From Alphaproteobacteria bacterium (GTDB lineage: Bacteria > Pseudomonadota > Alphaproteobacteria > Rs-D84), in the NCBI GenBank assembly GCA_031549365.1, contig JAVBPX010000003.1:8703-72702 (forward strand): a DNA stretch of 64,000 nucleotides, in the 5' to 3' direction. Under the pieces are notes generated by a model. It had not been told where the DNA came from. It saw only the letters and a program-made list of their open reading frames with translations, and searched no databases. This document shows positions 3,873-61,360 of this stretch, piece after piece (position 1 is the stretch's first letter; every line of letters begins with the position of its first letter). Position numbers and translations under genes: made by a program.

Positions 3873-4062
3873 TTAAAAGCGCCATCTCTCTGGACAAAGA
3901 ATCCCCCTGTGTTATCAAAAAATTTTATAACCTGGGGATAATACATATCAACAATCAAAAATTTCATTTAAAAAAAAATATATTTTAATGCACTTTTGCC
4001 TTGCGCGACCCAGTGATATTTTAGTATTGTGTTCCTGTGAAGTGTGGGAGCATTATGGAAAG

Positions 4063-7000
4063 ATGTTAAAAAAGTTAAATTCTTTTCTAGGTTTTTTTGC
4101 CTATTTTTCTGTGTTTTTATACACTGCGGGCCCTGCACAGGCAACTGATTGGCACGTGCCGACCGATTCTTTGCAAACCGCTATTGAAAACGCGACGGAC
4201 GATGACAATATAATAATTGACGCCGAAGTAACCAGCAATTTGGCGTTAACCCCAACACCTTTTGTAATCGATAAAAAGCTACATTATTCCAGTAATCCAC
4301 CGGGCCCATATGCAATAAATATGTATGTTAGTGCTGTTGCAGACTCTAACCGTCATTTTAATTTTTCATCTGGGGCTTCGGGAACTACTTTTACCAACCT
4401 TGCGCTGAATAATATTATGAATGTTGGGTTATCAGCTGCAATATCTATGGGCGGGGCAATTTATACCGATGGCGCTGATTTGACTTTGAACGGGGTAACA
4501 TTTGGCGGGACCCGTGGCAATCGCGTAGCAGATGCTGGGGGCGCAATTTATAGCATAAACGGCAACCTTGTAATAAACGATGGTTCCCGCTTTTCAACCA
4601 GCTCGGCCCTGTCGGCAACCAGCACGGGGGGTGCAATTTATATTGAATCCGCAACCTTGGAAATAAATGACTCTGTTAATTTCACAACTAACAAGGCGGC
4701 ATTGGGTGGCGCAATTTATGCAAAAGACACCGCCATAACATTAACTGGAAATACCAATTTTACATCAAATGCTGCGACTGGCGGGTTAAATTTGGGTGGG
4801 GCAATTTATTCTGATGGCGGTGACATAACAATTGATGCGGCAACGTTTAATTTAAATACTGCGACAAATGGCGCCGGGATATATATAACAGGTGCAGACA
4901 TTGATATCACCGGGGCTGCGTCATTTACATCAAACACCGCGACCGAATCTGGGGGCGCAATTTATTCTGATGGCGACTATATAACAATTGGCGATGGTGT
5001 CTATTTTATTTCTAACAAGGCGAAAATCGGTGGCGCAATTTACGCAAAAGATGTGTTAATAACATTAAATGGGGCCAATATTTTCACTTCAAATGCTGCA
5101 ACCGGCGGATTAAATCTGGGTGGCGCAATTTATTCTGATGGCGGAGACATAACAATTGATACAGCAACGTTTAATTTAAATACTGCGACAAATGGCGCCG
5201 GGATATATATAACAGGCGCAGACATTGATATCACCGGGGCTGCGTCATTTACATCAAACACCGCAACAAATTTGGGTGGTGCAATTTATTCTGATGATGG
5301 CGATATAACAATTTCCTATGGCACCAGTTTTACTTCTAACAAGGCAGCAAATGGTGGCGCAATATATATTAATAGCGGAAATCTTGATATTGACACTGCA
5401 ACATTTGCATCAAATACTGGAACAACTGCTGGCGGCGCAATTTTCGCCCAAGGCGATGGAATAACAATGAATATTGCTGGTATTGATGGAAACGACATGG
5501 CAATATTCCAGGGCAATATCAGTTCCGGAAATTTGGATTCCGTACGTAAAATTGGCGCAGGCGCAATATTTTTCGACGGAATAACAGCGGTTACGGACGC
5601 TTCGTTTGATTCAGGGTTCGACCCCAGCGCGTGCGCATTGTGCATTTCATATACCAAATTCGATTCGAACAAGGCAAATGCCAGCGTTGGCGGCGCAATG
5701 TATATTAATAATACCACCGCAACAATTTTGAACAGTGAATTTTCTAGCAATACGACTGGTGTCAATGGTGGCACAATGGGTGCTGCGATTTATAATGGAC
5801 CCGGGGCGAAAACATACATCGAAAATACTTCCTTTATCGGCAATTCAACTATTGCTTCTGCGGCATATGGTGGGGCTATTTATAATTCTGGATTTATGAA
5901 ACTGGTTAATGTTACCGTTTCTGGCAACAGCGCAAAAACATGGGGCGGCGCCGTTTTAAGCGGGGGAAACTTTAATAACGGGGAAGCAGAATTTTCCCCC
6001 GAGATAACAGTTATTGATAGCTATTTTTATCAAAACCTCTCTATCGGGGGCGGTGGCGCGTTTGGCTCTGCCGATAATTCAGCAAGGGCAGATGTTATAA
6101 ATACTAAATTTATTGAAAATTCTGCTCAACACGGTGGTGCGATTTATAATGAAACTGTTGTTAATATAAAAGATTCTGAATTCACCAACAATATTGGAAC
6201 AAATGGCGGAACCGGTGGCGGCGCTATATGGAGTGGTGCAAACTGGGCCATTGGTGAAAAACTTGATTTAACCGTCGATAATTCGACATTCACTGGGAAC
6301 AGAACCAGTTCCGCGGGCGGCGCAATATATTTAAACATATCATCTACTACTACAACTGATCCACGCTTTCCCGACTGGAAATACCCGGACACGAATACAA
6401 CCAGGATTACAAATTCTTCGTTCAACAATAATCTGACGACTGGCACTGGAAATGGCGGGGCAATTTATGCCAACGTTTCCCTGGGGGGATCTTTGATCCA
6501 AGACAGAAAATTAATACTGGATATTGATACTGTTACTTTTGATGGAAATTCTTCCGGGGGTAATGGGGGGGCGATTTTTATCAGCACTGAATATGCCGAC
6601 ACCGCAAACAACAAGGTTGGTACTGCGACATTAACAATTAACGACACAGACTTTACAAACAATGTGGCCGCGACAAATGGTGGCGCTATATACGGATCTA
6701 TGACCAGAGCGGGATCGGAATTGAACATAACTCTGTCTGATGTTGACTTTGATTCCAATACGGCCGGCACAAGTGGGGGCGCGCTGTATTTGTCCGGACA
6801 ATCGGCAACAACCAGACAAAATACAACAATATCAAATTCAACTTTTGACAATAACAAAGTTAGACGAATTGCCGTAATTGGCGCATCATACACGTTGAGT
6901 GGCGGGGCGATAAATAATGCTCAGAATTCAGACCTGATCTTTATCGGCAACCACGAATTTAACGCAAACAATATTGATGGATCTTTGACCAACACAGGGA

Positions 7001-10000
7001 CCGGAACAGCCAATTTTAGTTTGACCATGAATGCATACGGCAGCGCGATTTACAACGCAACAAACAGCACCATAGATTTTGGAACATTTGTGTTTGAATT
7101 TAATGAAAACTTTGCAGAATCTGTTGTTAATGCAACAAATTCGGGAACTTTTGTTTCAACCTCCACCGCAAATGCACATGGCGGGGCGTTTTATAATTCT
7201 GTAAACACGACAATTGAATTTAACCCAGGTTCAGTATTTGATGAAAATTCTGTATACGCCGAGGCGAATTCGACAAACACCGGAACTGGCGCTGCAAACG
7301 CCACAGCCAATGCATATGGTGGCGCAATTTATAATTCCGCCGCAGGGATTATAAATATTCAAAACTCGTCCATATTCGTGAATAATGCCGCGGCGGCTGT
7401 TGCAACGTCAACTGGATCCGGGACAAAAACAACAAATGCAAATGCTTATGGCGGCGCGATTTATAATACAGGAACAAATTCAGAAATTAATATTATGGGT
7501 CTCGAAAAAACTGGAATCGACGAAACCCGTGTTGTATTCCGCGGGAACAGCGTAATCGGTGGTGCTGCTAATACATTTGGTGGTGCGATTTATAATGCTG
7601 CCAAATTAAATATTACATACGCATTGTTTGAAAACAATCTGTCATCGGGACTTGGCGGCGCGATTTATTCCGCAAATCTGCCAATTACATTTGATGAAAT
7701 TGAATTTTCCGGAAATTCTTCTGATGTTGCCGGAGGCGCACTGTATATTAATGTTGCAGCCGGGACATTTAATCTGAATAATGTAACATTTACGTCTAAT
7801 TCGTCGCTTGATGGTGGAGCATTTTATTCCAAAATGGCAACAAATGTTTCCGATACTGTTTCGTTTACAGACAATACTGCGACCGGATTCGGCGGAGCAT
7901 GGTATATCAACAGCGGAACTGTAAATTTAAATGCTGCTACATTTACTGGAAACTCTGCCGCAACAGGTGGTGGCGCAATCTATAACAATGGAACATTAAA
8001 TGTTAATGGCGGCACAACATTCGCAAACAATTCTTCGACAACGGCCGGCGGCGCGATTTATACAATGCAAAATCTGACATTGAATTCAACAGCCGGCAAT
8101 ATAAATTTCACAAACAATACTGTTGCTGGTGTTGGGAACGATATTTATATCAATGGGATTACAGCACGTACAATTACAATTAATGGAACAACAAACAATG
8201 TCATTATGAACGGCGGCTTTGCAACCAATGGCACACCAAACAGCGGTAATCACACTATTACAAAAACTAATGCTGGCAACTTGCTGGTTACCGGCGATAA
8301 TTTTGGATTTACCGGGACGTCGACAATATCCGGAGGCCAAGCAATCATAGATGGCAAATGGATAAACGGATTAACAACGGTTAACAACGCCCTGCTCCGC
8401 GTGACCAGCGAAACTGTTCATGAACGCGTAACCGTCGCCAATTCTGCTGGAATTTTTGAACATTTATCAAATTCTTTGACCAGGTCAGACATTGCAAATA
8501 CCAATTTTAAATTTTCTGTTGGATCTGGCGCAACGATGAAATTTATGGCAGATTCTTCACTGGTTGGACAATTGGCAAAATATAATTTGGCAAATAATTT
8601 GGCGTTTACACTTGTCGGAACAAACAATGTATTGTTCAAAGATTCTGATGTTACATTTGGGATTAATTCATATCTGAAAAATTCCAATGGATGGATAAAT
8701 TACACATTCCAGGATTCTGTTATCAACCTGGGCAATGCGGCCATCGAAACAACCAGTTTTCAGCAAATAACATTGGATAACGCAAAATTGTCATTTGATG
8801 TCGGCTTTAAAACTGATGGAACTATTGATTCGGATAAAATTGCAATCACAACATTGGGCGGAGAGAATACAATAAAACTGGGTAATGTTTATTCCGTGAA
8901 CGGACAAAATGACAACGGTTTGACACAGGTTTATACTTCCCAGGTTTTAATGCCAACTGGATTAAATTTCGATTCGTCATTAACCACAACAGTTAAATCT
9001 GATATATACGAATATCTGGCGACCGTCAGTGGGAAAAATGTAACCCTGACTGTTATTGGGGCCGCGGATGAAAATTCTTTGTATGCTGCAAATGCGCAAA
9101 CGGGAACACGCTCGTTTAATATGACATATTTTACGGCGACACCATATACATACAACATCGGTCAAAACCTGGGGGCTACGTCAAATGGGACATTTAATGT
9201 TGTTGGAAATTCAGCTGCAACCAGTATAATTTCTGGAATATTGGTCGATTCTGATGGCACACCAATTGGGGGCAAAGGATCATTCTTTGACGTTTCCGGC
9301 ACAACAAATTTAACACTGGAAGCTATCAGCATTGTTGATGCATACAAACTGGGCGATGGCTCTGTATTGTCTGTTAACGGAGGCGGATCTACAATTAATT
9401 TAAACAGCCTAACTTTGGCAAATAACGAAGCAACCGCGAATGGTGGTGCGATTTATAATTCTGGCGTTATAACAGTTACTGGCAACAGTAGTTTTGAAAA
9501 CAATATTGCGGGATTAAATGGTGGTGCGATTTATAATTCTGGGACTTTATTTTTGAATTCAAACACAGGGAACATCGTATTCTCAGGCAACACCGCAACT
9601 GGGGATGGGAATGACATATACAACAATAGCGGCACAATAAATATTAACGGAACTGGGAATGATGTAATTTTCAATGGGGGAATCGCTGGAAACGGAACCA
9701 TCAATAAATCCGGAGCCGGACGATTGGTTATAAACGCCGATGTTTCTGATTTTAATGGGATATTTGCTCAGAGTGCCGGGACAACAATATTTTCAGACGT
9801 CATGTTTGATGGCAATATTAACGTTTCTGGGGGAACCGTTGAAATTGCAAATGGTGGTGAATTTTCAAATAACTCTGTGCTTGGATTATCCAGCGGCGGC
9901 ACACTAAATATTACAACGGGATCAAACATTATACTGACTGGTGGAAATTTAACTGGACTTTCTGGAACATACGGAACGGTTAATAAATCTGGGGCAATGG

Positions 10001-13000
10001 ATTTGATTTTGGATGGAAATAATTCCGTATTCCGCGGCATATATAACCAAACGGCGGGCAGAACCCTTGTTGATTCCACAAGTTTGATGTTTAATGGCAC
10101 AAATAATATTTCAAACAGTATTTTGGAAATTTCGGCATTGACTGTATATGAAAAAGCAAACATTGGCAACAATGGTCAACTGATACATACCGCGGAAATT
10201 GCTATAACTTCGGCAATTAATGATGGAAATACAAATTTACAGTTTATTGGAACTGGCGGCAGCATGCTGTTCGATGCATCCACGTCTTTGGCAAACGGAA
10301 CCAATTATAATTTGGCCAATAAAATTGATAACGGCAATTCAAATACTGTTACTTTTAGTAAATCAAATGTTTTATTGGGGGCAACAGATTACACAGGTGG
10401 AACCACATACGCATTTAGCAATTCCACGATTGATTTAAATTCTGGGGCACTGAACAATGTTGTATTTTCCAAGACCAAATTAACCAATGCAAAGCTGTCA
10501 TTTGATACGCGTTTTGCAATGTCCGGAAGCGATCCTGTATTAACATCAGATACATTTAATGCGGGCACATTATCAGGGGACAGCACGATAAACATCGGAA
10601 TAATAAGAATTTTGAACGATGATGCGGACACAGGACTGTCCGGGATGTATACGTCCCAAGTATTGTCTGATTCATCGTCTCTGACCTTTGGCGGATCTTT
10701 GGACACGATGTATTTGTCTACGAATGTTTATGAATACGAGGTTACAACCAACGGGAAAAACGTCCAACTGTCTGTTGTAAATGCTGCGGATATAAATTCT
10801 TTGTACAGAATGAACGACACAGCAAACAAACGCGGATTTAATATATCATATTTTTCTGGCTCTGCTGTTTATTACAACATCGGACAAAGTTTGGGCATAA
10901 CCAAAGACGGGGAATTTATAGTCCAAGGTTTTGACAATGATCCAGAACATGGTATAATTTCCGGTGAAATAGTTGATCAAAACGGCGATTCAACTGACTC
11001 TTATGGCTCATTCTTTAAACTGGCCGGGGCTACGATTTTTACATTGAAAAACCTGACTATCGAAGACGCGTATTCTGTTGGTTCTGGATCTGTGCTGTCT
11101 GTGACTGGGGCAGCGTCATCCGCATTGGTTGAAAATATGATATTGCAAAATAATGAATCCGTCGGAAACGGTGGTGCTGTTTATGCGACTGCTGGGGAAT
11201 TGCATATCGGGCAAGCAATTTTTGATTCGAATAAATCCGGTGCAAATGGTGGGGCGATTTATAATTCGGGTAATACATCTTCTGTTGGGACAACAAAATT
11301 CGAAACTAATGTCGCTGTTTCAACCGGTGGGGCGATTTATAATTCGGGCACCATCAGCTTTGCCGACTTGGTTGAATTCATTTCGAACAGATCGGTTGAT
11401 GGTGCGGCTGTTTATAATACTGGGACCACTGGATTTAACGGCGTTACAAATATACAGTCAAATATCGCCACAGGCAACGGTGCTTTATATAATTCTGGGA
11501 ACACTACATTCTATAACGAAGTTAACATGATCGCAAACTCGTCTTTAAACGGCGGTGCAGTTTATACAAATGGCGGCTTGTTAAGCCTGAGAGCTTTGGC
11601 AAACTTTGAAAACAATAATGCAACAACAAGCGGTGGCGCATGGTATATAAATTCTGGAACAATAACAGTTCTGGACGAATTGATACTTGACTCTAATTCT
11701 GCGAACGCTGGAAATGGCGGCGCAGTATATGTATCCAATGGCGGCACATTAAACATAAACGGTGATGCAACAATATCGGATAACGATGCTCTGTCTGGGT
11801 TCGGTGGCGGAATATATCTGGCTGGAAATATGAATCTGGGCGGAACATCAGCAACAGATATTGTGTTCAGTGGAAATTCTGATAGCTCTGGGTTAAACGA
11901 CGTTCACATTGCGAATACTGGCGTATTGTCTGCAATTGGCTCTGGCACATACAGCTTTGATGGGGGCATTTCTGGCGATACAGGATCCGCAATATCCGTC
12001 AGTGGTGCCGGGGCCCGATTCAGCGCAGAAATGACCGACTTTATCGGAAATTACACTCAAAGTGGGACTCTGTCGTTATCGCAAATATATGGTATATTAA
12101 ATGCAAATTATACTATAACCAATGGGGTCGCTCAATTCATCGATTCTGGATTATCCGCGGGCAAAACGATCACTGTTAATGGGAACGGTATTGCACAATA
12201 TTTGGGTTTAAATTCTGATAATCTGGGAACTGTTACAGGGTCTGGGACATTGGTTGTTGCCAACACATTGACCAATACTGGCACGATTGATGTTGGAACA
12301 TTGCGCATTAATTTTGACACCATAAACGACGGTACTATTGATTCTGATTCAACAATTATAAATGCGGATGTTACCAATAATTCCGCAATATCTGGAACCG
12401 GGACAACAACAATTATGGATGGTGCCAATTTATTAAATCTGGGCACAATTCAACAAAATCGATTAATTATAAATTCTGGTGCAATAACTGAAACAATTGC
12501 TGATGATTTGACGATTGCTAATGGAATTACAAACAATGGAACACTGATATTTAATGGCGGGACCAATGCAAACGTTATATCTGGGAGCGGCCTTTTACAA
12601 ATTATTGATGATGTAAATAACACTGCTTTGATTTCCATTGGAGATGTAGAAATCATATCCGGCAAAGAATTTAATTCCAACGCATCAAAAATTTCCGCAT
12701 CAAATGCCATACAGAACCAAGGTTTGTTGAATCTGTACGGCAATGGCACATGGACTTCTGCCGTAACGGGGACAGACGGAACCACAACATTTGGCAATGG
12801 CACTCTTAATAATACCGCCACAATCCAACAAAAGGGCTTGGTTGTAAATGGGGATGGTATATTTATTACTGATGGTGGATTAATACAAACCGGCGACGAT
12901 GGAATAATAGTAAACGGCACACTTAATGTTACCAGGGGGAATTTGACCGCTCAAACAATATCCTTGGTATCGTCTGGACCATCTGATGTTCCGACATTTG

Positions 13001-28680: not shown

Positions 28681-29367
28681 ATGTTGTATGCTGTACAAAA
28701 ACCTCAGACACCTGTTATTGCTTATCGAGGACCTGCAGATGATGCATTAAATAATAAACCTGGGGAAAAAAGATCCGAAGTAAAATTAAAACCGCACGAA
28801 AGGTTACAGCAAGCAATTGTTGATAAAAAAATTACGCTAAGCGAAAACGCAAGCGAAGATCAAACAATGTTTAACATTGGGAATTTACGTAAATATATTA
28901 AAAAACAAAAGCAAATTGATGAAATTCCAGAAACTCAGAGATATTTGACCCAGCAAAAGGTTAATTGGACCGTTTACAAATGGTGTCTGGATGAAGTTTC
29001 CAAAACGTTAAATGAATATCACAAAGAAAAAAACAAAGACCCGCACGGCGCGTTTGGTTCGGCGTCCGTTGAATTAACTGCGTTAATGATGTATGCGTTC
29101 GAAGCACACGAACAATTGATTTCAACAAAAAACGTATTGCTGTCTAAAAGGATTAATTTGGATAACGGAAAAAACAATACAAAAAATCCCGAGTTTGATA
29201 AATCAGTTAAAAAAATTATAAAAAAAGATCGCGAATGCGAAAAAATTGAACGCAGCCTTGCCCGACGCTTGTTAAAGGCAAAATTTATTGATATTTCTGT
29301 TGCCGAAGAACAACGAAATAAATTGTGCCGATATATGTATAAAATGGGCTTCTTTAACGAGAGATAA
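28681..29367 (+). CDS. hypothetical Lys-rich protein (ORFan cluster 1)
   Basis: 228 aa and charged. C-terminus is ..RYMYKMGFFNER. Preceded by an RBS AAGGATGA. Confidence 0.5.
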   Translation: MLYAVQKPQTPVIAYRGPADDALNNKPGEKRSEVKLKPHERLQQAIVDKKITLSENASEDQTMFNIGNLRKYIKKQKQIDEIPETQRYLTQQKVNWTVYKWCLDEVSKTLNEYHKEKNKDPHGAFGSASVELTALMMYAFEAHEQLISTKNVLLSKRINLDNGKNNTKNPEFDKSVKKIIKKDRECEKIERSLARRLLKAKFIDISVAEEQRNKLCRYMYKMGFFNER

Positions 29368-37856: not shown

Positions 37857-39113
37857 ATGCAAGAAAAAAATGTAAAAATGGCGGTTTTTGGCTGTCGATT
37901 GAACAGTTTCGAAGCTGAAAAAATACGAACAATTGTATCAAATGCGAATTTTGATGATGTGATTGTATTTAATACTTGCGCCGTCACGGCCGAGGCTGAA
38001 CGCCAGGCTCGCCAATCCGTGCGCCGAGCATATCGCGAAAATCCGAACCGAAAAATCATTGTTGTTGGGTGCGCAGCATCGGCCAATGCCGAATTATTTG
38101 CAAATTTACCCGGTGTAATCAAGGTCATAGGGAATCGTGATAAATTTGATATAAATGCATATACCTGTTCCAATGTTATCGTTAATAATCCGATGGCTTT
38201 TGATGAATCTGCGCCAATGCATTTGGATACAATGGTTGAACATTTTGAAAAATTAACCCGCGGTTTCGTCCAAATTCAACAAGGATGCGATCATGCATGC
38301 ACGTTTTGTCTGGTGCGAAAGTTACGTGGGGCAAATAAATCATTCCCATATGAACATATTAGGGCCCAGGCTGAAATTCTGGTCAATCACGGATATCATG
38401 AAATTGTTTTAACTGGTGTGGATATTGCAGGATACCGCGATAATGATGGAGGATTGATATCGTTGGTTAAAAAATTACTAAACGATATTAATGGAATTAA
38501 ACGCATTCGTTTATCATCATTGGATCCCGCATTGGATTGGCGCGAATTGGTTGATTTAATGAATAATGATGATCGTGTTATGCCACACATTCATTTGTCA
38601 ATGCAATCTGGGGCTGATCCAATTTTACGGATGATGGGACGCCGCCATTTGGTCGAACACGTTCGAAAATTGGTAAACTATGCAAATTCGGGTGCACGCG
38701 AAATAACATTTGGATGGGATATGATTACTGGATTTCCGGGTGAATCGAACGAATTATTTTTGGATACACAAAATTTGGTTCGCGAATTAAAACCAACGCA
38801 TTTACATTTGTTTCCATATTCCCCCCGCCCTGGGACCCCGGCCGCGTCCATGACGAACGCCATTCCGAAACACGTGGCGCGGGAACGCGTTGCCGCATTG
38901 AACGAAATTGGACAACGCAATTTATTAAACCATATGATGAAACAAGTTGGAAAAACAGTTGAAATTTTGGTAGAAGACAATGGCGTTGGATACACCCCAA
39001 ATTATGTCCCTGTGAAATTAAACAATCGCCCAACCCCATTTTCAATATTAAATGCTGAATTGACGGATATTGATCATGAAAATATACGGTTCATTGGAAA
39101 TGCCAAAGATTGA
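37857..39113 (+). CDS. MiaB-family radical-SAM methylthiotransferase (MtaB/RimO-like)
   Basis: MAVFGCRLNSFEAE is an MTTase N-terminal domain. CDHACTFC is a radical-SAM CxxxCxxC. There is a C-terminal TRAM-like region. Start is the ATG at 37857. Confidence 0.8.
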   Translation: MQEKNVKMAVFGCRLNSFEAEKIRTIVSNANFDDVIVFNTCAVTAEAERQARQSVRRAYRENPNRKIIVVGCAASANAELFANLPGVIKVIGNRDKFDINAYTCSNVIVNNPMAFDESAPMHLDTMVEHFEKLTRGFVQIQQGCDHACTFCLVRKLRGANKSFPYEHIRAQAEILVNHGYHEIVLTGVDIAGYRDNDGGLISLVKKLLNDINGIKRIRLSSLDPALDWRELVDLMNNDDRVMPHIHLSMQSGADPILRMMGRRHLVEHVRKLVNYANSGAREITFGWDMITGFPGESNELFLDTQNLVRELKPTHLHLFPYSPRPGTPAASMTNAIPKHVARERVAALNEIGQRNLLNHMMKQVGKTVEILVEDNGVGYTPNYVPVKLNNRPTPFSILNAELTDIDHENIRFIGNAKD

Positions 39114-39873
39114 TAAAAATTTATCATCAAAAATATCCCCCTCGCCCCTTGCGGGAGAGGGTCGGGGTGAGGGGTCGCACAGAAAATACGATATCAAAAC
39201 GAAGACTTTTGCAAGAAATTTAAGAAAAAATCAAACAGATGTAGAAATAAAATTATGGTCAGTATTGCGAAATAATAATTTTAAAGATTTTAAATTTCGC
39301 CGACAATTTCAAATTGACAATAAATACATAGCCGATTTTGTTTGTTTGGAAAAAAGGTTAATCATTGAACTTGATGGCGGGCAACATTCAGAAAGCAATC
39401 ATGATAAAATACGAACAAAATATATAAACAAACAAAATTTTAAAATTTTACGATTTTGGAATAATGAAATTAATAAAAATATGGATGGATGCCTGGCCGC
39501 GATTATGAATGAATTGTTAAAAAACCCTCACCCTGACCCTCTCCCGCAAGGGACGAGGGAACATATTGAATCTAGAAAACAATTTAAACGCAACATCGAA
39601 AATTTTATTTGCAAACATTGCGGCACATCGGTCGTTGGCAACGGATACACAAATCATTGTCCAAAATGTTTATACAGTTTGGATGTCGATATTAACCCGG
39701 GCGATCGAGCATCAAATTGCGGTGGGTTGATGAAGCCGATTGGGATTACAGTACGTGGGGATGATTACATAATTCATCATAAATGTGTAAAGTGTGGCAA
39801 AGAACGGCCAAATAAATCATCTCCAAACGATGATATGAATGCAATAATAAAAATATCAAAACAAGAAATTTAA
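39076..39873 (+). CDS. fusion ORF: DUF559 (Vsr-like endonuclease fold) module joined in frame to an RNHCP zinc-ribbon domain
   Basis: The DUF559-like core is ..RNLRKNQTDVEIKLWSVLRNNNFKDFKFRRQFQIDNKYIADFVCLEKRLIIELDGGQHS..ILRFWNNEI. The RNHCP part is FICKHCGTSVVGNGYTNHCPKCLYSLDVDINPGDRASNCGGLMKPIG. The two are joined through translated hairpin repeats. Confidence 0.6.
   Translation: MKIYGSLEMPKIDKNLSSKISPSPLAGEGRGEGSHRKYDIKTKTFARNLRKNQTDVEIKLWSVLRNNNFKDFKFRRQFQIDNKYIADFVCLEKRLIIELDGGQHSESNHDKIRTKYINKQNFKILRFWNNEINKNMDGCLAAIMNELLKNPHPDPLPQGTREHIESRKQFKRNIENFICKHCGTSVVGNGYTNHCPKCLYSLDVDINPGDRASNCGGLMKPIGITVRGDDYIIHHKCVKCGKERPNKSSPNDDMNAIIKISKQEI
39137..39174. repeat. 38-bp GC-rich hairpin element (left inverted repeat flanking the DUF559 module)
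   Basis: cccctcgcccc-ttgcgggagagggtc-ggggtgagggg. It is a perfect inverted partner of 39525-39562. Confidence 0.8.
39525..39562. repeat. 38-bp GC-rich hairpin element (right inverted repeat)
   Basis: Its reverse complement is gttccctcgtCCCTTGCGGGAGAGGGTCaGGGTGAGGG. This matches the left copy over about 28 nt with one mismatch. Confidence 0.8.
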
Positions 39874-43217: not shown

Positions 43218-44345
<1,128 letters not shown>

Positions 44346-47097: not shown

Positions 47098-47859
47098 ATG
47101 TTGGGCGTAATATTTTTATTAATGTCTGTTGTATGTGGATATATTTTTTGGCAAAAAAAATTGCCACGGAATCGTTGGTTTAAACCGGCTGCCATTTTGT
47201 TTTTTATTTTGGGCGTTGGATTTTCGGGTCATCCGTCATGGATTGGATTTTTATTACCAATTGCCGCCGTTGGATGCGGATTGATTGCCGGGCATGCGTG
47301 GGCAAAATACAAAACTGTGCCGACCGCGATGCTATCAAATTATTTGGTAATTACAATTTCAGCAATTATTTGGTTGGCAACCGCCGCGATCGTTATGCAA
47401 CCAGAATATTTCCAATTCGGTCGCATGGGTTATTTAACAGTATTTCATTTGGTGTTTTTAATTGCGATTGCAATGATTGCGCCATTTGTTATTTCAATGG
47501 GGATTTTTACAAAAATTAAACGCGAAAAAACGTTTTTAAATGCGGCAACACATAAACACGCCATTATGTTATTGCGCTTGTTAATGTTGTTGGGATTGCT
47601 GTTGTTCGCAATGACTGAATCCGTTTTAATGTTTTTGATGATATCCGTTATATCGGCCGCAATTGCAGGCGTTTCCGGTGGCCATTTATTGTCGACCCAA
47701 ACAAAACATATCCCAGATATGCTGTTTTCAATGTGGTTAATTTTATTGGGATTATTTGGAATTATTACAATTTTGCCTGTATTAACAATCGTTGCTATAT
47801 TATTATGGGTTGCGAATACGCCAAAAAATTTATGGAAAAATATTCGAGAATTAATTTAA
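47098..47859 (+). CDS. hypothetical polytopic membrane protein
   Basis: 253 aa with 6-7 hydrophobic helices. Confidence 0.45.
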   Translation: MLGVIFLLMSVVCGYIFWQKKLPRNRWFKPAAILFFILGVGFSGHPSWIGFLLPIAAVGCGLIAGHAWAKYKTVPTAMLSNYLVITISAIIWLATAAIVMQPEYFQFGRMGYLTVFHLVFLIAIAMIAPFVISMGIFTKIKREKTFLNAATHKHAIMLLRLLMLLGLLLFAMTESVLMFLMISVISAAIAGVSGGHLLSTQTKHIPDMLFSMWLILLGLFGIITILPVLTIVAILLWVANTPKNLWKNIRELI

Positions 47860-55893: not shown

Positions 55894-56850
55894 TTAAATC
55901 CTGGGTGATACGCGGATATAACTGCCCATATCTGTGACGGAATATCCAAATGCGCGCAATGCGTTTTCAAATCCACGACGTTGATCAATATTTACGCCCA
56001 TACGTGCGGTTGCGGCGGATATTGTTTGGGTTGTTGGATGAATATTGTTATCAGTTTCGATTTTTTGAATTTGCCCGCGTAATGTCGCCCATGAACGCAA
56101 TCCCGACGGTAAATCAAACAAAAATATGGCTTGATCCACGATAACCATTGTTTGACCCAAATGTTCCGTGATCCAAAAATCATTAATCAAACGAACGATT
56201 GCGGTGGCCACGGCCGCCGAACCGTAACCCAAAATTGTTGTTTCGCGGGATTCGCGCGATTCAACATTCATAACTCGGATTTTTGTATTTTCACCCATTT
56301 TTGTAATTTGTGCTGTATAAACCAAAGTTTCGTCTGCAACATATTTATCGCCAACCGATATCAACATTTTCGATGAATCCATCCCACGAATAATATTCAT
56401 AGTGTTTGATTTCATTGTCGAATTATCCGCGAATTGATCCACAGACAACATTTGAATATATGCTGGCTTTTTCGATTTTATCATTGTATATGGAACATCA
56501 TTTTTACGCATCCAATTAATCATGGATTCTCGGGCCACTGTCATAGTAACGTCCGCAACATAAGATGTTTGTGATTGTTTTTCATTATCAATATTTGTCG
56601 CGCCAACCAATGCTGCGATATCCGAATTTGAAAGCGATGGCAACAATTCATTTAATTTTTTTGAATCCCCAAAACGATAAAATATGGTTGATACAATATC
56701 GCGGCGCGCTTCGTCCATCCCCTTGTTTTTCGCAGTTGTCGCAGAATCATCGCGTTTATCAATATGGCGAGATTCAACAAACATAGGATCGGCCGCAATC
56801 GCAGTCCCAATAAATAACAATGCAAACAAAGATAAAAACAATTTTTTCAT
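55894..56850 (-). CDS. hypothetical periplasmic protein
   Basis: Signal peptide MKKLFLSLFALLFIGTAIA. 318 aa. Confidence 0.5.
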   Translation of the reverse strand: MKKLFLSLFALLFIGTAIAADPMFVESRHIDKRDDSATTAKNKGMDEARRDIVSTIFYRFGDSKKLNELLPSLSNSDIAALVGATNIDNEKQSQTSYVADVTMTVARESMINWMRKNDVPYTMIKSKKPAYIQMLSVDQFADNSTMKSNTMNIIRGMDSSKMLISVGDKYVADETLVYTAQITKMGENTKIRVMNVESRESRETTILGYGSAAVATAIVRLINDFWITEHLGQTMVIVDQAIFLFDLPSGLRSWATLRGQIQKIETDNNIHPTTQTISAATARMGVNIDQRRGFENALRAFGYSVTDMGSYIRVSPRI

Positions 56851-56923
56851 ATTTCCCCCGAATTTATGTATCCACCCTATTCTATAATACGCGCGATCGT
56901 TTTTCCAGGGGAAAATAAATAAC

Positions 56924-56956
56924 ATCAAAAAATCCCGAATATTACATGGGGATTTT
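56924..56956 (-). terminator. terminator downstream of the OMP gene
   Basis: aaaaaatccc-gaatattacatg-gggatttt. Confidence 0.5.
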
Positions 56957-56961
56957 AAATT

Positions 56962-58323
56962 TTAAAACTTGGAAACAATTCCGACGCGTGCGCCAATTTG
57001 TTTATAACGAGCGTCAATTTCCTTGGACGTTTTGCATGAACCATTTGCGCCACATGTTTGTTCGATGTAATCAACGTCGGCCTGGGTAATGCGGCTGTCT
57101 GGATTATTGGCCTGATCCTGATACCATGACAAATCATAATTTGTGGTCGCATCACCGCCGGATAAAATATAATAATCATATACAACGCCCAATACCAAAT
57201 CCAATTTTGGTGTAATGCGTCCAACATAATTCATTGCGGCGCCAATGTGATATGCTTGGCCGATGCTGCCCTCGTCCTTGAAAGATGTCGGGTGTTGTAA
57301 ATCCCCGCGATCTGGCCAATTGGCTGTTGCTGAATAAATTGGCAAACCAAATTCCAGACGCCAATTGATTGCGTTCGCAGCATTTATATGATTATCAATA
57401 TCCATTGCAACGAATGGGCCTGCCCATGTTGCCTTGTACTTGTGCGTTGTGCCGGATAACATGTCATAAAAGCTGTCCAAAGGAGTTCCGCCCGTACCAT
57501 TTGATGGGACGTAACCATCAATAAAACCGTCTCCATTGTTATCAACCGGGGTCCATGGCACTATACCCCATATAGTCTTACCATCTGCTGTCCCTGACGC
57601 CACGTACAATACAGGATTCCCATTGCTGTCTACTTCAATAAACACCGCGCGTGAATCTTCGACCTTTAATTCTTGGGTTATTGAACGGTAACCAATCGAC
57701 GGCGTAAATGTTACGTTGCCCGCAGACCACATATCTTTTAACCCGAATGCAACATGATATCCCATCATGGATCCATCCTGACCACCGACACTGAATGCCT
57801 TTAATGATTTTGGGTATTCACTTATAAGCCCGCCACCAGTCCCAGAATTTACAACATCAAACAAAGTTGTATCAATTCCGCCATTATAAACGTCGTCGTC
57901 AATCGCGCGCCCGGAATCCATCATGATTCCATATACAAATCCGAAATCAATCATCCCTGCGATTTTATTAATCGGTTTCATGATGTATCCACCGTTTAAT
58001 GATAATGTGGTCCAGGTTGTGTTGCTCCATGATAAAATTGATTTTGCTGAATTCATTTCAAATTCAAAATCGGACCAAGCCATCCCAATATTTCCGCCCA
58101 AATAAAACCCGGATGGCGTTTGATATCTATCGGATGGAATTGTTGCAACCGGCGCAGTGCGCGCAGCAACAGTAACAACACGTGGTTGTTCGTAATAATC
58201 TGGCGCCTTGGTCGATGTTGTATTTGTTCGACCGCCGCCGTATTGTTGAAAATAATCAATATCATCGGCAAGCACAGGTGTTGCCAACATTAATATAAAT
58301 AACGATGATAAAATTTTACGCAT
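56962..58323 (-). CDS. outer-membrane beta-barrel protein
   Basis: Signal peptide MRKILSSLFILMLATPVLA. The C-terminal residue is Phe (..GIVSKF). There are alternating amphipathic strands. Confidence 0.65.
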   Translation of the reverse strand: MRKILSSLFILMLATPVLADDIDYFQQYGGGRTNTTSTKAPDYYEQPRVVTVAARTAPVATIPSDRYQTPSGFYLGGNIGMAWSDFEFEMNSAKSILSWSNTTWTTLSLNGGYIMKPINKIAGMIDFGFVYGIMMDSGRAIDDDVYNGGIDTTLFDVVNSGTGGGLISEYPKSLKAFSVGGQDGSMMGYHVAFGLKDMWSAGNVTFTPSIGYRSITQELKVEDSRAVFIEVDSNGNPVLYVASGTADGKTIWGIVPWTPVDNNGDGFIDGYVPSNGTGGTPLDSFYDMLSGTTHKYKATWAGPFVAMDIDNHINAANAINWRLEFGLPIYSATANWPDRGDLQHPTSFKDEGSIGQAYHIGAAMNYVGRITPKLDLVLGVVYDYYILSGGDATTNYDLSWYQDQANNPDSRITQADVDYIEQTCGANGSCKTSKEIDARYKQIGARVGIVSKF

Positions 58324-58436
58324 ATTAAATACTCCGTACATTCGTATATATGGGCATTATAGCGTATTTGAAAATTTCAGGCAATCGGAAAATGATTAAA
58401 TATATTTTTATGCTTTGGCTTATTTATGCACGAATT

Positions 58437-58751
58437 TTATTTTTTAATAATTTCGGTCCTGGACCCACAGATATCCCATGCTTCATCTTCCAGTTTTTTA
58501 ATTTGTTTTAACAGCGTTGAAATTTCTTTTAATTTTTCTGCGTACCGAACGCGGCCGCGTGCCAGGTCTAAACGATATTGGTTTTCGAGATAATCGGCCA
58601 TGGCATTAAAAAATTCCGAACGCGCCCCATGCGTCATTGCGCCAATATCATCGGCCAGATTGGATAATGATCCATTATAATTTTCGCAATAATTTTTATG
58701 AGCACATTTTTTGTCCACGATATGTCCTTTCAGGCTGTTGCACTTGGTCAT
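58437..58751 (-). CDS. hypothetical protein
   Basis: 104 aa with no recognisable domain. Confidence 0.4.
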   Translation of the reverse strand: MTKCNSLKGHIVDKKCAHKNYCENYNGSLSNLADDIGAMTHGARSEFFNAMADYLENQYRLDLARGRVRYAEKLKEISTLLKQIKKLEDEAWDICGSRTEIIKK

Positions 58752-58820: not shown

Positions 58821-58907
58821 TGGTGCGGGTAACTGGACTTGAACCAGCACGATCGCAATGATCAAAGGATTTTAAGTCCTCAGCGTCTACCATTCCGCCA
58901 TACCCGC
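58821..58907 (-). tRNA. tRNA-Leu (anticodon UAA)
   Basis: GCGGGTATGGCGGAATGGTAGACGC...GAGGA-cuUAAaa-UCCUU, a long variable arm, a T-arm GGTTCAAGTCC and an encoded CCA. Confidence 0.88.
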
Positions 58908-58930: not shown

Positions 58931-59015
58931 TGGTGCGGTCAAGAAGACTCGAACTTCCATGGATTTCTCCACAGCCACCTCAAGGCTGCGCGTCTACCAA
59001 TTTCGCCATGACCGC
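58931..59015 (-). tRNA. tRNA-Leu (anticodon GAG)
   Basis: GCGGTCATGGCGAAATTGGTAGACGCG CAGCC-uuGAGgu-GGCTG, a long variable arm, GGTTCGAGTCT and CCA. Confidence 0.88.
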
Positions 59016-59088: not shown

Positions 59089-59125
59089 TTAAAAAACGCC
59101 CCGGTTCGGGGCGTTTTTGTTTTGG
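59089..59125. terminator. bidirectional terminator
   Basis: aaaaaacgcccc-ggtt-cggggcgttttt. Confidence 0.65.
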
Positions 59126-59136
59126 CTTTAAACCTG

Positions 59137-61215
59137 TTATTCAAATCCGATTGGGTCGCCGTATGACGCGACTTCTTGGCCCGCAATGAAACAAGAAATA
59201 TCAGCGATTTCGGAATCATACGCATTGTTCAACATGATTTGGCGGGTAACCAAGAATCCTGTTGTTCCCAACGCAGCGCCACCAACGGCATCGGAAATCA
59301 AACGACCCGTTTTATTCAGCCCCTTGTTTTCTGCCAAATCTGCGCGGTCATCGACAGCGCTTTCCCATGCTTTTTGTTGTTCAGAACACTTGCTTGAATC
59401 GTTCGAATTAGTACTCAAACATGAATCCAACTTGGTTTTCTCTGCTCTGATTTTTGCGTCAGCCTGGGTATAATCATTGGATTTTGATTGCTTGTTACCA
59501 ATATTTGCAATCGCGTTATTGCCCCAAACTTCCATCAATCCGACACCGGCGCCCGCGGACAATAATCCAACACCAGTTGAAACCCATCCACGTTTGTTGC
59601 GGGCCGCTTTATCACCCGTGCGAATATCTTTTTTCAAATCAGATTCGCTGTGCCATCCGCCGCAAATTGTTTGGTCGGACATACGCATTTTTGCGCTGGA
59701 CAAATTTTTCAATTTTGGATTTGTCTTCGAAGACAATTCAACTGTTACCCAACATGTATTATCCAAATCATCGGTTGCAACGTTGGATGCATTCGAACGA
59801 CTGGCCCAAGTATAACTGCCATTATTTGTGATATCGGCAGCTTTACATTTTGAACGCAGGGCCATAGCGTCGGCCTTCATTTTATTTTTTATCAATGCAC
59901 TGGTATCTTCCAACAATTCTTGGAATACTGTGGCGCCATCATTACCGGATGATTTAACAGAATTCCATGCAGCGCGAACATTTGATTTGCCACCCCATGT
60001 TGAACTGGTCGAACCTTCGGCAAAGAATGTATCCTTGCAATCCGCATCATTTTTAACTGTTGCCATACACAATGAAGCCACAACTTCGGCATCCAATTCC
60101 TTGGCTGTTATATCATAACAACGACCATAATCAGCACCACATTCGGTTTTAATACATTTTTCAACGGATGCCTGACAGCTTTCACGCATTTGCGTAATCA
60201 TTCCGTCCGAAAAACTGGCGGATAATTCACCGTTCAATTTTACAACAAATCCAGCGGCATCATTTGTCCATAAATGTGTGAACAAACGTGATGCTTGACC
60301 ACCAGCTGCGACTGTGTATGCGTCCTGGCATGCCAGGGATGAATTTATAACTTCTGTACAGCCATTTTCAATTTGTGTGTTAACATTTGCGGCAGCTTTT
60401 AAATCAACGCGGCCCGACACTTTGGATTGGGTGTAACAAGCGGCCAACGAACCACCAGCACAATTATTTTGAACGCATTCGCGAACTTCGTTATAACACA
60501 GACCTTGCTGTTTAACGATATTTTCAGCAACCAATACGGCCAATTTTCCCTTTAATATTTCATAACGATCATTGTAAACATCGTCGAATACGAAGCTGGC
60601 CTCGTCAGTAATAACTTCGTCGGACGCATTTGCTTGGGCATTAGCCATCATACGACATGCCTTGGCGCGACCAACGGTTTCCAAACAAGATTGTTTTACG
60701 TATGCCTTGACATTCGTTGTCGAATTTCCGGTCGATTCAGTACATTTTCCCAAATTAACAGAACAAGTCGAAATCATACATTCGTCCATTGTTTTGTAAC
60801 ATGCATCAACTGCATTTTCAGCAGTTAAAACGATTGCATCGGCGATTGACTTGTTCACCAATGATTCCAGAGCCTTTTTCCCAGCGGCATCACATGAATT
60901 ATAAACGTCGGCACAATAAACCTTGACCGCGTTAAATTCTTCAGATGTTGTACAATTTTCAAATGTTGATCCGCAAGCACTGTCACGGCGTAGGCATCGC
61001 ATATATTCCGTTGCGCATTTGCCCGTTGTCAATGTTGTTGACGTAGATTGCTGGGTTTGTTGTTGCGTTTGATTTGATCCGCGAACTGTCCCAACGGTCA
61101 ATACGCCACGTGCCCCTGCCATGCTGGCACGCGGTGCCGGCGTTGCAGCATTTGCCGTCGCAACCATTGAAATTGCGCCAATTATTCCATATAAACACAT
61201 CCGAAATCTGGACAT
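59137..61215 (-). CDS. cysteine-rich secreted protein of unknown function
   Basis: 692 aa. Signal peptide MSRFRMCLYGIIGAISMVATANA. About 45 Cys. A strong RBS AAAGGGGGAAAAT precedes the ATG. Confidence 0.65.
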   Translation of the reverse strand: MSRFRMCLYGIIGAISMVATANAATPAPRASMAGARGVLTVGTVRGSNQTQQQTQQSTSTTLTTGKCATEYMRCLRRDSACGSTFENCTTSEEFNAVKVYCADVYNSCDAAGKKALESLVNKSIADAIVLTAENAVDACYKTMDECMISTCSVNLGKCTESTGNSTTNVKAYVKQSCLETVGRAKACRMMANAQANASDEVITDEASFVFDDVYNDRYEILKGKLAVLVAENIVKQQGLCYNEVRECVQNNCAGGSLAACYTQSKVSGRVDLKAAANVNTQIENGCTEVINSSLACQDAYTVAAGGQASRLFTHLWTNDAAGFVVKLNGELSASFSDGMITQMRESCQASVEKCIKTECGADYGRCYDITAKELDAEVVASLCMATVKNDADCKDTFFAEGSTSSTWGGKSNVRAAWNSVKSSGNDGATVFQELLEDTSALIKNKMKADAMALRSKCKAADITNNGSYTWASRSNASNVATDDLDNTCWVTVELSSKTNPKLKNLSSAKMRMSDQTICGGWHSESDLKKDIRTGDKAARNKRGWVSTGVGLLSAGAGVGLMEVWGNNAIANIGNKQSKSNDYTQADAKIRAEKTKLDSCLSTNSNDSSKCSEQQKAWESAVDDRADLAENKGLNKTGRLISDAVGGAALGTTGFLVTRQIMLNNAYDSEIADISCFIAGQEVASYGDPIGFE

Positions 61216-61360
61216 ATTTTCCCCCTTTCATTACGTTTCATATGCTTTATTTTATCATATCGCCCCAATTCGCGCAAGCGGTAATGTCAATAAAATTGCG
61301 CCTTTGCTCTATAAAAAATTTTGTGGTTGATTTTATGATTTTTTCGTTCATCATACGCAC

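Follow-up and report, generated by a model that had tools for sequence, protein, structure and literature searches.

The gene at positions 59137..61215 (reverse strand) of the window, the whole 64,000-nt stretch of DNA analysed here, encodes what is on balance a Sec-exported modular envelope protein, whose mature chain would lie in an oxidising compartment, be held by about 15 disulfides and serve as a membrane-associated strut or tether. From its N-terminus, the precursor would comprise a signal peptide and a short Arg motif; after a flexible S/T/Q linker would come a stalk of four six-Cys modules (M0, MA, MB and MC), rigid and almost wholly helical, and last a C-terminal anchor, as follows:

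61221..61228, reverse strand: purine-rich RBS AAAGGGGG, 5 nt upstream of the ATG
59137..61215, reverse strand: CDS, complete ORF of 692 aa plus TAA stop
61147..61215, reverse strand: Sec (SPase I) signal peptide, residues 1-23, called from the sequence and the homologue alignment
61030..61146, reverse strand: Arg motif, then disordered S/T/Q-rich linker (linker pLDDT <50), residues 24-62
60820..61029, reverse strand: module M0, residues 63-132; Cys 67, 74, 81, 88, 101, 108
60520..60819, reverse strand: module MA, residues 133-232; invariant Cys 139, 146, 151, 158, 177, 187
60196..60519, reverse strand: module MB, residues 233-340; invariant Cys 240, 247, 252, 260, 286, 296
59872..60195, reverse strand: module MC, residues 341-448; invariant Cys 347, 354, 359, 366, 383, 393
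59596..59871, reverse strand: MID domain, residues 449-540, predicted helix plus three-stranded beta sheet (pLDDT ~95)
59521..59595, reverse strand: predicted Gly-zipper helix 1 (GWVSTGVGLLSAGAGVGLM), moderately hydrophobic, no Sec stop-transfer segment
59308..59520, reverse strand: variable loop, residues 566-636, predicted helical hairpin with Cys pair 599/610
59236..59307, reverse strand: predicted Gly-zipper helix 2 (LISDAVGGAALGTTGFLVT)
59140..59235, reverse strand: TAIL, residues 661-692, predicted beta hairpin with invariant C675 (pLDDT 92-97)
59092..59118, reverse strand: intrinsic terminator, stem CGCCCCG / CGGGGCG then TTTTTT, 18 nt past the stop

Gene, export signal and predicted fold

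The 692-aa ORF of the preliminary description is borne out: the gene is monocistronic, with its own RBS and its own terminator, whose palindromic hairpin could work in both directions. The start codon was placed at M1 (692 aa, the Logan version) and not at M17, where the NCBI record begins (676 aa), because M1 is invariant among the homologues (alignment A2). The N-terminus, MSRFRMCLYGIIGAISMVATANA followed by A, is laid out in n, h and c regions as in a Sec signal peptide, with cleavage after ANA. It can be aligned with the corresponding segments of the relatives, being kept in sequence and position across the homologues, so that the earlier call of a Sec signal peptide holds. No lipobox was found in this signal peptide, which ends in VATANA before the A, and Cys7 lies inside it without lipobox context.

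In the AF2 model residues 60-530 are nearly all helical with pLDDT ~90, while the MID strands and the TAIL hairpin reach 92-97 and both Gly helices fall below 50. Searches of Pfam, NCBIfam, PHROGs, PDB sequences and, with Foldseek, PDB and viral structures gave no significant match, in agreement with the initial impression that no known domain is present. In Pfam at E-values up to 10 the sole return was a sub-threshold match of residues 598-618 to CHCH (PF06747; E 0.043, 14.4 bits vs a cut-off of 27.2), and ten relatives were negative too; non-significant Foldseek matches include Coa6, Mic19 and the SmhB pore (E 4.7). No stretch of the protein falls within a curated family or a solved fold.

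A family with conserved and probably paired cysteines

Word-indexed homologue searches, with the single sequence or a profile, returned the protein itself alone, and an exhaustive HMMER search was needed to recover 272 relatives. All the named ones are annotated as "hypothetical protein" and come from uncultured gut Alphaproteobacteria (Candidatus Enterousia, order Rs-D84, genomes <1 Mb). The genome scan was seeded with a 13-sequence alignment, the 48-sequence alignment being too divergent, and at least 80 species-representative genomes, all of them gut Alphaproteobacteria/Enterousia MAGs, carry the family, which is widespread across the order-level lineage. Judged from these sequences, it is an unnamed family known solely from tiny-genome gut Alphaproteobacteria.

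Of the 31 cysteines of the protein, where approximately 45 had been counted at first, 30 belong to the mature chain; cysteine amounts to 4.5% of its residues, compared with 0.88% in the other 35 ORFs of the window (P ~5e-13). Nor are they regularly spaced along the whole length, as the preliminary description had it: 24 lie in the four six-Cys modules, within residues 67-393, and just six in the last 300 residues. The three Cys-containing peptides quoted in that description were found at residues 67-88, 139-158 and 240-261, and its suggestion of a spacing repeat proved fruitful, since the pattern C-x6-C-x4-C-x6-C-x17/25-C-x9-C is present three times, in MA, MB and MC. These modules are diverged tandem duplicates: profile-profile comparisons with hhalign, which detected the internal repeats after BLASTP self-comparison had missed them, show them to be mutually homologous (E 2e-7 to 2e-5), and their six cysteines stay in register throughout. 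M0, with the spacing C-x6-C-x6-C-x6-C-x12-C-x6-C, is weakly related to MC (profile-profile, E 6e-5).

Across 48 sequences with an overall identity of about 25%, 26 cysteines are invariant and a further two almost so; every one of the 24 module cysteines is conserved, 23 of them invariantly and C67 in at least 90%. The stalk is the most conserved part of the protein and the loop the most variable. Totals of 38-48 cysteines occur only in longer relatives (~1,050 aa). The mature cysteine count is even in 59 of the 62 relatives with the MID+TAIL architecture (P ~1e-14), and the three odd-count exceptions are truncated proteins or have doubtful starts. Even counts and invariant cysteines together point to full intramolecular disulfide pairing; the heavy disulfide bonding first proposed is very likely, and about 15 intramolecular disulfides appear to hold the protein together.

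The layout of the modules (C-x6-C ... C-x9-C) and the Cys599/Cys610 pair of the loop fit disulfide-stapled helical hairpins, resembling the CHCH twin-Cx9C proteins (PF06747) and the cysteine-rich Sel1-like-repeat proteins of Helicobacter, in which the cysteines of antiparallel helices lie about two helical turns from each other. Unlike CHCH domains, which are mitochondrial and whose model is matched only below threshold, the modules of the window protein are bacterial, would be periplasmic and have six cysteines in ~55-105 residues; the Pfam scan gave no Sel1 match. No candidates for DsbA, DsbB or VKOR were seen among the window ORFs scanned, and the host lineage is reported to be without a respiratory chain (PMC12306168); both points count against the reading that we favour.

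Fused, split and permuted forms of the proposed anchor

In most relatives that reach MID, the N-terminus carries the Arg motif (consensus A-R-P-S..A..R-x-P-T, with R29 and R36 at least 90% conserved), which was detected in 80 of 110 N-termini leading into MID versus none of 14 cargo-type N-termini; in the window protein it follows the signal peptide, with both R29 and R36 present. The anchor itself runs in the order MID (three Cys), Gly helix 1, variable loop, Gly helix 2 and TAIL (one Cys). Of the three conserved cysteines of MID, 457 and 518 are invariant and 488 is kept in at least 90%; the domain also has an invariant W470 and a CGxW motif, and TAIL has the motif I-x-C-x-I-x-G-x4-x-Y-G-D close to the C-terminus. 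Loop length is 75 aa in the window protein, 0-290 aa in the relatives and ~17 aa in the short relative P0072, and the number of cysteines between the Gly helices is even in 55 of 55 relatives. The window protein shows the whole arrangement, including the even-Cys loop and the even mature total.

Other relatives carry MID and TAIL on separate chains or in another order. Architectures were classed by HMM, which replaced a regex that was too crude, and tail-only proteins were left out of the mixed alignment, in which they were misaligned. The cysteine count is odd in all ten TAIL-only proteins and in 23 of 25 short MID-only proteins, whereas permuted single-chain fusions (cargo-GlyH2-TAIL-MID-GlyH1) have even counts, and in all three loci examined the MID-only and TAIL-bearing genes lie no more than ~4 kb apart, being adjacent in locus L090. 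Because split partners are odd, fused and permuted chains are even and the split genes are neighbours, we infer that MID and TAIL form a disulfide-locked docking module; in the window protein the TAIL hairpin would fold back onto MID and be locked there through the single TAIL cysteine. One TAIL-bearing relative carries an OmpA peptidoglycan-binding domain on the loop/cargo side of Gly-helix 2, and other cargo domains are Cys-rich and EGF-like. A tail-only protein (P0120) considered as part of the window's own genome, from the same sequencing run, was rejected on contig composition (GC 0.46 vs 0.40 for the window; tetranucleotide r 0.84 vs 0.98).

In donor-strand complementation (chaperone-usher), cohesin-dockerin and isopeptide Spy-type systems, a short segment completes and fixes the domain of another chain. 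The split, permuted and fused architectures suggest that MID and TAIL may share this concept by analogy; they are not homologous to those systems, and would be locked by a disulfide, with each partner bringing one Gly-zipper helix. A tentative extension, which we consider possible but do not favour, is that MID/TAIL is a modular envelope-anchoring system of base and cargo proteins. The base protein would give the beta domain and one glycine-zipper helix, and the cargo protein the second glycine-zipper helix and the beta-hairpin tail; the cargo hairpin would complete the base domain and be fixed by an intermolecular disulfide, with the two helices as membrane anchor. The window protein would then be the self-contained fused form and a core strut of the envelope, with a rigid stalk stapled by 12 disulfides.

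Proposed membrane association and envelope role, and alternatives

For the window protein itself, the Gly-zipper helix pair would most likely insert into a membrane from the periplasm and so embed the protein there, with the outer membrane as the likeliest site, as for the glycine-zipper lipoproteins SlyB, YfgH and YiaD. It could lie at the outer membrane on the periplasmic side, at the inner membrane on its outer face, or on the surface of the cell. The stalk would resist proteases and serve the envelope as a structural strut or tether, a role suggested by the architecture.

Among the closest known kinds of protein are the glycine-zipper 2TM outer-membrane lipoproteins (SlyB, YfgH, OsmB and YiaD; the Rickettsia 17-kDa antigen; PF05433, PF13488), with which the window protein has in common export and a predicted membrane-associated pair of Gly/Ala-rich GxxxG-type helices beside a putative small periplasmic domain. 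In E. coli YiaD a Gly-zipper and an OmpA domain occur together (bioRxiv 10.64898/2025.12.22.696046), an arrangement paralleled by the TAIL-bearing relative with an OmpA domain. Helix 1 of relative P0004 came close to the PF05433 cut-off (23.9 bits vs 24.2, E 3.9e-5; PF13488 E 0.008), and the two Gly segments of the window protein, scanned alone, gave no match to the glycine-zipper models. Unlike these lipoproteins, the window protein has no lipobox or lipid anchor, has a long loop between its helices and bears Cys modules, MID and TAIL that are unrelated to them.

Conserved gene neighbours give no functional hint. The preliminary description had placed the gene in a neighbourhood of envelope genes, and a Pom-family OMP (Protochlamydia-type porin), MlaD, an AmiA-like lipoprotein and an SLT transglycosylase are indeed nearby, but the window neighbours were absent from all 80 relatives' loci examined and the gene is transcribed alone. 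The gene of the closest relative adjoins rpsD and uvrB, and the window lacks a counterpart of the cluster conserved in Enterousia (three ~430-aa paralogues, a Zn-ribbon/TM protein, a small secreted protein and RluD), whose Pfam matches were uninformative. Other Cys-rich secreted families adjoin the genes of relatives, and a giant PMP-repeat adhesin-like protein is encoded elsewhere in the window.

It is possible, if unlikely, that the protein is a surface coat or adhesin whose Gly helices span the outer membrane, so that MID/TAIL, the stalk and the N-terminal motif form a protease-resistant spike in contact with host or partner cell, while the variable loop, or the cargo domain of split relatives, is periplasmic. 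Disulfide-rich stalks are typical of the gut-exposed surface proteins of eukaryotic parasites. The OmpA peptidoglycan-binding domain of the one relative would make the loop/cargo side periplasmic, and the opposite side could then be extracellular; the PMP-repeat protein also fits a surface function, and Rs-D84 is thought to be partner-dependent, with many unexplained membrane proteins (PMC12306168). However, there is no evident way for a folded stalk of ~470 aa with 12 disulfides to pass the outer membrane, no secretion gene is linked to it within the window, the Cys-rich EGF-like cargo fits an exposed cargo side or an all-periplasmic protein, and a most conserved stalk with a most variable loop is the opposite of the usual surface versus periplasmic pattern.

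A lattice of the Chlamydia type, in which intermolecular disulfides with other envelope proteins would give wall-like rigidity, is quite improbable. OmcB and OmcA are likewise Sec-exported, cysteine-rich envelope proteins of host-associated diderms with reduced genomes (PMC6752827, PMC2811131), and the Protochlamydia-type Pom porin nearby, the PMP-repeat protein and the Cys-rich secreted families beside relatives' genes could be read in the same sense. No chlamydial cysteine-rich-protein model was matched, however, and the predicted fold is helical; descriptions of the chlamydial complex have it cross-linked between molecules, whereas the strictly even cysteine counts and the invariant spacing within modules favour intrachain pairs. 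Moreover, genes for rod shape and peptidoglycan are retained in the lineage (PMC12306168), and the window has the AmiA-like and SLT genes. The OmcB precedent of the preliminary description amounts to no more than an analogy.

In outline, a helical body with a Gly-rich hydrophobic helix pair also resembles alpha-pore-forming toxins, and the SmhB pore was among the non-significant Foldseek matches, but a secreted or contact-dependent toxin delivering its Gly-zipper hairpin into a target membrane is very improbable. No structural or sequence match was significant, each of the 80 loci has one copy, with synteny conserved within Enterousia and no immunity-like partner, the extensive disulfide stapling speaks against a large conformational change, and the same anchor bears the peptidoglycan-binding domain in one relative.

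We give only slight credence to a metal-binding protein, in which the Cys clusters would coordinate Zn, Fe-S or another metal instead of forming disulfides. Conserved clusters with short spacings can bind metals, and the habitat is anoxic and reducing, with no Dsb gene seen in the window. Against this, the protein is exported, its modules have six cysteines and it has no CxxCH or CxxC motifs; Cys pairs rather than Cys4 sites are indicated because the mature totals, though even, cover both residues modulo 4, many of them not being multiples of four (30, 34, 38, 42, 46), and the protein has two histidines only. The complementary odd and even counts of split partners also fit pairing.

An inner-membrane two-helix hairpin with a cytoplasmic loop is hardly tenable: two hydrophobic segments of ~19-22 residues and basic residues before helix 1 would suit it, but the helices (+4.6 and +4.0 kcal/mol on the Hessa scale vs -0.4 and -3.4 for real anchors in the window) are too weak for stop-transfer, the loop cysteines are without exception even in number, and in split relatives the arrangement would put MID in the periplasm but TAIL in the cytoplasm, where the two could not pair. 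Finally, the gene does adjoin tandem tRNA-Leu genes, as had been noted, just downstream on the same strand (58931-59015, gag; 58821-58907, taa), but the suggested arrival as genomic-island cargo at this site can practically be dismissed, given a composition inside the spread shown by the other genes of the window (GC 0.441, GC3 0.380, RSCU distance 0.113), no integrase or att-like direct repeat of the tRNA 3' end found in the window, no PHROG match, a terminator of the gene's own and a promoter-like site of the tRNAs' own, and the wide distribution of the family in the lineage.

Rs-D84/Enterousia bacteria are widespread in human and animal guts, have genomes <1 Mb, have never been cultured and possibly depend on partners (PMC12306168). 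The envelope strut or tether that we favour belongs to a family that is among their largest conserved exported proteins, which makes it an entry point to the construction of their envelope, and the family could provide a marker or an antigen by which to detect them; with no part of it covered by a curated family or solved fold, it merits a database entry. The 15 to 24 structural disulfides predicted in anaerobes reported to have no respiratory chain raise the question of how oxidative folding is powered, and if the MID/TAIL anchoring reading were true, these hosts, with such genomes, would need an unconventional oxidising power for their disulfides. The split, permuted and fused MID/TAIL forms suggest a new mode of envelope attachment which, if confirmed, would interest envelope biologists and protein engineers.

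The cysteine-rich gene and its transcription unit

The open reading frame of the cysteine-rich protein is real, and the peptides quoted from it in the preliminary description were found in the 692-aa product. The ribosome binding site and the Sec signal peptide described there were also borne out: a purine-rich AAAGGGGG stops 5 nt short of the ATG, and the first residues, MSRFRMCLYGIIGAISMVATANA|A, are arranged as in a Sec signal peptide. The NCBI record starts at Met17 (676 aa), excluding window positions 61167-61215 (-), so that the signal peptide lacks its n-region and most of its h-region. This is probably a start-codon misannotation; the 692-aa start is preferred because of its ribosome binding site, an independent gene call and the aligned signal peptides of homologues.

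59137..61215 (-): cysteine-rich gene, 692 aa

A canonical intrinsic terminator (CGCCCCG-AACC-GGGGCG, then TTTTTT) lies 18 nt past the stop codon, and the two tRNA-Leu genes downstream have a promoter-like site of their own (TTGAAA-17-TATTAT). The adjacency to tRNA genes had raised the idea of an island inserted there, but the gene has a GC content (0.441), GC3 (0.380) and codon usage inside the range of the other window genes, no att-like repeat was found around the tRNA-Leu genes, no integrase near the gene, and the protein has no match in PHROG. Island cargo is thus an unlikely origin; this is a native, monocistronic gene whose place beside the tRNA genes looks incidental.

Probable cysteine pairing and the proposed C-terminal anchor

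The protein has 31 cysteines, 30 of them in the mature chain, and not the roughly 45 first counted; nor are they regularly spread, being clustered mostly in residues 67-393. At 4.5%, its cysteine content far exceeds the 0.88% of the other window ORFs (P about 5e-13). Its parts are as follows.

Residues 63-448: stalk of four six-cysteine modules (M0, MA, MB and MC), cysteines in 67-393
Residues 449-540: MID, a beta domain after the stalk, with three cysteines (C457, C488, C518), an invariant W470 and a CGxW motif
Next: a Gly/Ala-rich helix (Gly-helix 1), a helical loop with two cysteines (566-636) and a second Gly-rich helix (Gly-helix 2)
Residues 661-692: TAIL, a beta hairpin with one cysteine, the invariant C675, and ...C-x-I-x-G....YGD close to the C-terminus

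In a 48-sequence alignment with a mean identity to the query of ~25%, 26 cysteines are invariant and two more at least 90% conserved. MA, MB and MC are homologous, with their six cysteines in register (hhalign E 2e-7 to 2e-5), and M0 is a weaker relative. The mature cysteine count is even in 59 of 62 relatives of the same architecture (P about 1e-14), the three exceptions having N-terminal truncations or doubtful starts. Conserved cysteine clusters can also bind metals, but totals such as 30, 34, 38, 42 and 46 cannot be divided by four and the window protein has only two histidines, so that disulfide pairs are favoured over Cys4 sites and metal binding is unlikely. The sequence evidence therefore favours structural, paired cysteines.

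An AlphaFold2 model built from a 48-sequence alignment is nearly all helical and has high confidence (pLDDT about 90) in residues 60-530, its beta elements being a small sheet (468-511) and the C-terminal hairpin (673-684). From the cysteine spacing and the predicted helices, we infer that in each module two disulfides (C1, C2 to C5, C6) would staple a helical hairpin, with a small C3-C4 loop in addition.

The C-terminal part occurs in several forms, and cysteine parity follows them.

Parity of mature cysteine counts by architecture, assigned by MID and TAIL HMMs among the 150 best relatives
Architecture; even; odd
MID + TAIL; 59; 3
TAIL only; 0; 10
Short MID only; 2; 23

This distribution implies one unpaired cysteine each in MID and TAIL. 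At all three loci examined, MID-only and TAIL-bearing genes lie within about 4 kb of each other, and all seven of their proteins have odd counts (MID-only 5, 5 and 5; TAIL-bearing 7, 23, 27 and 25); at one locus (L090) the two genes share a strand, and about 230 nt separate the end of the TAIL-bearing gene from the MID-only gene downstream of it. Among the proteins classed as "MID-only", the longer ones with an even cysteine count carry Gly-helix 2 and TAIL immediately before MID, and are permuted single-chain fusions in the order of the L090 gene pair. Because complementary parity, gene adjacency and two fusion types agree, these comparisons point to a TAIL that docks on MID and is disulfide-locked to it, one Gly helix coming from each side. 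In the window protein, docking and lock would form inside a single chain.

If MID and TAIL pair in this way, a simple inner-membrane hairpin is ruled out, since its split forms would put MID in the periplasm and TAIL in the cytoplasm; an inner-membrane protein anchored by a two-helix hairpin is accordingly unlikely. The Gly helices have Hessa-scale values of +4.6 ± 1.1 and +4.0 ± 1.2 kcal/mol, compared with -0.4 and -3.4 for genuine membrane anchors in the window and 8-9.5 for the most hydrophobic stretches of cytoplasmic proteins, and on these scores they should traverse the Sec translocon without being halted. Loop length in relatives runs from 0 to about 290 aa, and the loop's cysteine count is even in 55 of 55 proteins, which argues that the loop too lies in an oxidising compartment. 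A conserved N-terminal Arg motif is present in 80 of 110 N-termini leading into MID and in none of 14 cargo-type N-termini.

Family, hosts and neighbouring genes

A word-indexed homologue search recovered the window protein alone; an exhaustive HMMER scan, covering 1.84 billion representatives, gave 272 relatives at E <=1e-3 and 26 at E <=1e-30. Full-length relatives mostly have 900-1,200 aa and 38-48 cysteines, the window protein being a short form, and all named ones are annotated "hypothetical protein". A genome scan seeded with a conserved motif returned 201 confirmed matches at 80 distinct loci, nearly all in gut or rumen MAGs labelled Candidatus Enterousia, uncultured Rickettsiales or Alphaproteobacteria, and including a circular chromosome of 958,618 bp. 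One typical Enterousia-type gene (L052, CAVGNU010000002.1) is on a contig deposited as Bacteroides fragilis, probably a binning or labelling error.

Enterousia is placed in the order Rs-D84, gut bacteria with genomes <1 Mb, few biosynthetic pathways, neither TCA cycle nor respiratory chain, and suspected dependence on a partner (PMC12306168). No Dsb or VKOR candidate was found among the window ORFs scanned, and a lineage so reported might have to draw the oxidising power for its disulfides from an unusual source. The window's own organism was absent from the genome-scan matches; given that its protein is 36% identical to the closest relative (P0003) and about 30% to Enterousia proteins, it is a more distant member of the Enterousia radiation. 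LptE, MlaD, a CcrM-like methylase, a Pom porin and SLT in the window are consistent with a diderm alphaproteobacterium.

Other window genes include the following.

3988-14817 (+): giant 3,609-aa ORF with Chlamydia-type polymorphic membrane protein (PMP) repeats (PF02415, E 7e-35) and, C-terminally at residues 3508-3602, an OmpA peptidoglycan-binding domain; it resembles an adhesin-like envelope protein of huge size
39070-39873 (+): unusual fusion of a DUF559 endonuclease-like domain and an RNHCP zinc ribbon, 3.4% Cys
43251-44345: CcrM-like N6/N4 methylase with a RAMA domain
56962-58341 (-): 459-aa outer-membrane protein encoded directly downstream of the tRNAs, of Pfam family Pom (Protochlamydia porin; 51.7 bits, cut-off 22.4)
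55894-56928 (-), 58437-58751 (-), 15004-15672 (+), 28681-29367 (+), 47098-47859 (+): no Pfam match, and for the first two no PHROG match; among them are a 344-aa secreted protein and a 104-aa protein between tRNAs and porin

A Pom-family porin is unexpected in an alphaproteobacterium-like genome, and its linkage to the cysteine-rich gene recurs in no relative. In Enterousia (L002-L081), a conserved same-strand cluster about 6 kb upstream (e.g. L012 4157-9883) leads to the family gene: three paralogous ~380-440-aa proteins (no Pfam match), a Zn-ribbon/TM protein, a small secreted four-cysteine protein (even count in 63/63), RluD and the cysteine-rich gene. Divergent from it are genes for DnaX, a pilin-like protein, an OmpA-like lipoprotein and a Skp-like protein; none of these genes is in the window. 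Downstream (neighbour clusters c10, c12 and c20) are other secreted cysteine-rich families of about 445 aa (about 9 Cys), about 610 aa (about 22 Cys) and 807 aa (with an M0-type module). Enterousia-type bacteria seem to export many disulfide-rich proteins.

Location, role and novelty

In one TAIL-bearing relative an OmpA peptidoglycan-binding domain is on the loop/cargo side, which places that side in the periplasm. This 342-aa protein (L086 8805-9995, minus strand) joins the domain to Gly-helix 2 and TAIL, with 7 mature cysteines; TcpQ and secretin genes are found a few kb off at the same loci. In an Enterousia relative, Gly-helix 1 reaches 23.9 bits with the Pfam glycine-zipper 2TM model (cut-off 24.2), and neither helix of the window protein gives a match to that model. 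The E. coli outer-membrane lipoproteins SlyB, YfgH, OsmB and YiaD have glycine-zipper helices as their anchors, and YiaD additionally carries an OmpA domain (bioRxiv 10.64898/2025.12.22.696046), a combination resembling the OmpA-bearing relative.

We propose, as the simplest reading, that the entire mature protein would be kept in the periplasm, with the Gly-zipper pair attaching it to a membrane and the stalk, stapled by its disulfides, acting as a rigid strut or tether. We regard this overall picture as moderately likely; the outer membrane is the most likely compartment, a point held with less confidence. The main rival, in which the stalk stands on the cell surface, seems rather improbable.

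The claim that no known domain is apparent held: Pfam gave only a sub-threshold CHCH hit (14.4 vs 27.2 bits, residues 598-618), NCBIfam no match and PDB sequences no significant match, and ten relatives of varied architecture matched neither Pfam nor NCBIfam. Foldseek of the model against PDB and viral models gave no match with E <0.08 (query-normalised TM-scores <=0.2), and the C-terminal module modelled separately (pLDDT about 95 in beta domain and tail) had no structural match. Membership in the CHCH, glycine-zipper 2TM, Sel1 and OmcB families was rejected, no defining model being matched at its threshold, and the OmcB-type precedent first offered holds only as an analogy. A cross-linked lattice and a toxin are both unlikely readings.

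The protein reuses known principles, namely export by Sec, helical hairpins stapled by disulfides and membrane association through a glycine zipper, but their combination is new. Its family is uncurated and has no detectable relative by fold, and the docking module that the protein adds is apparently new as well. We raise tentatively the possibility that MID/TAIL represents a truly new system for envelope anchoring.
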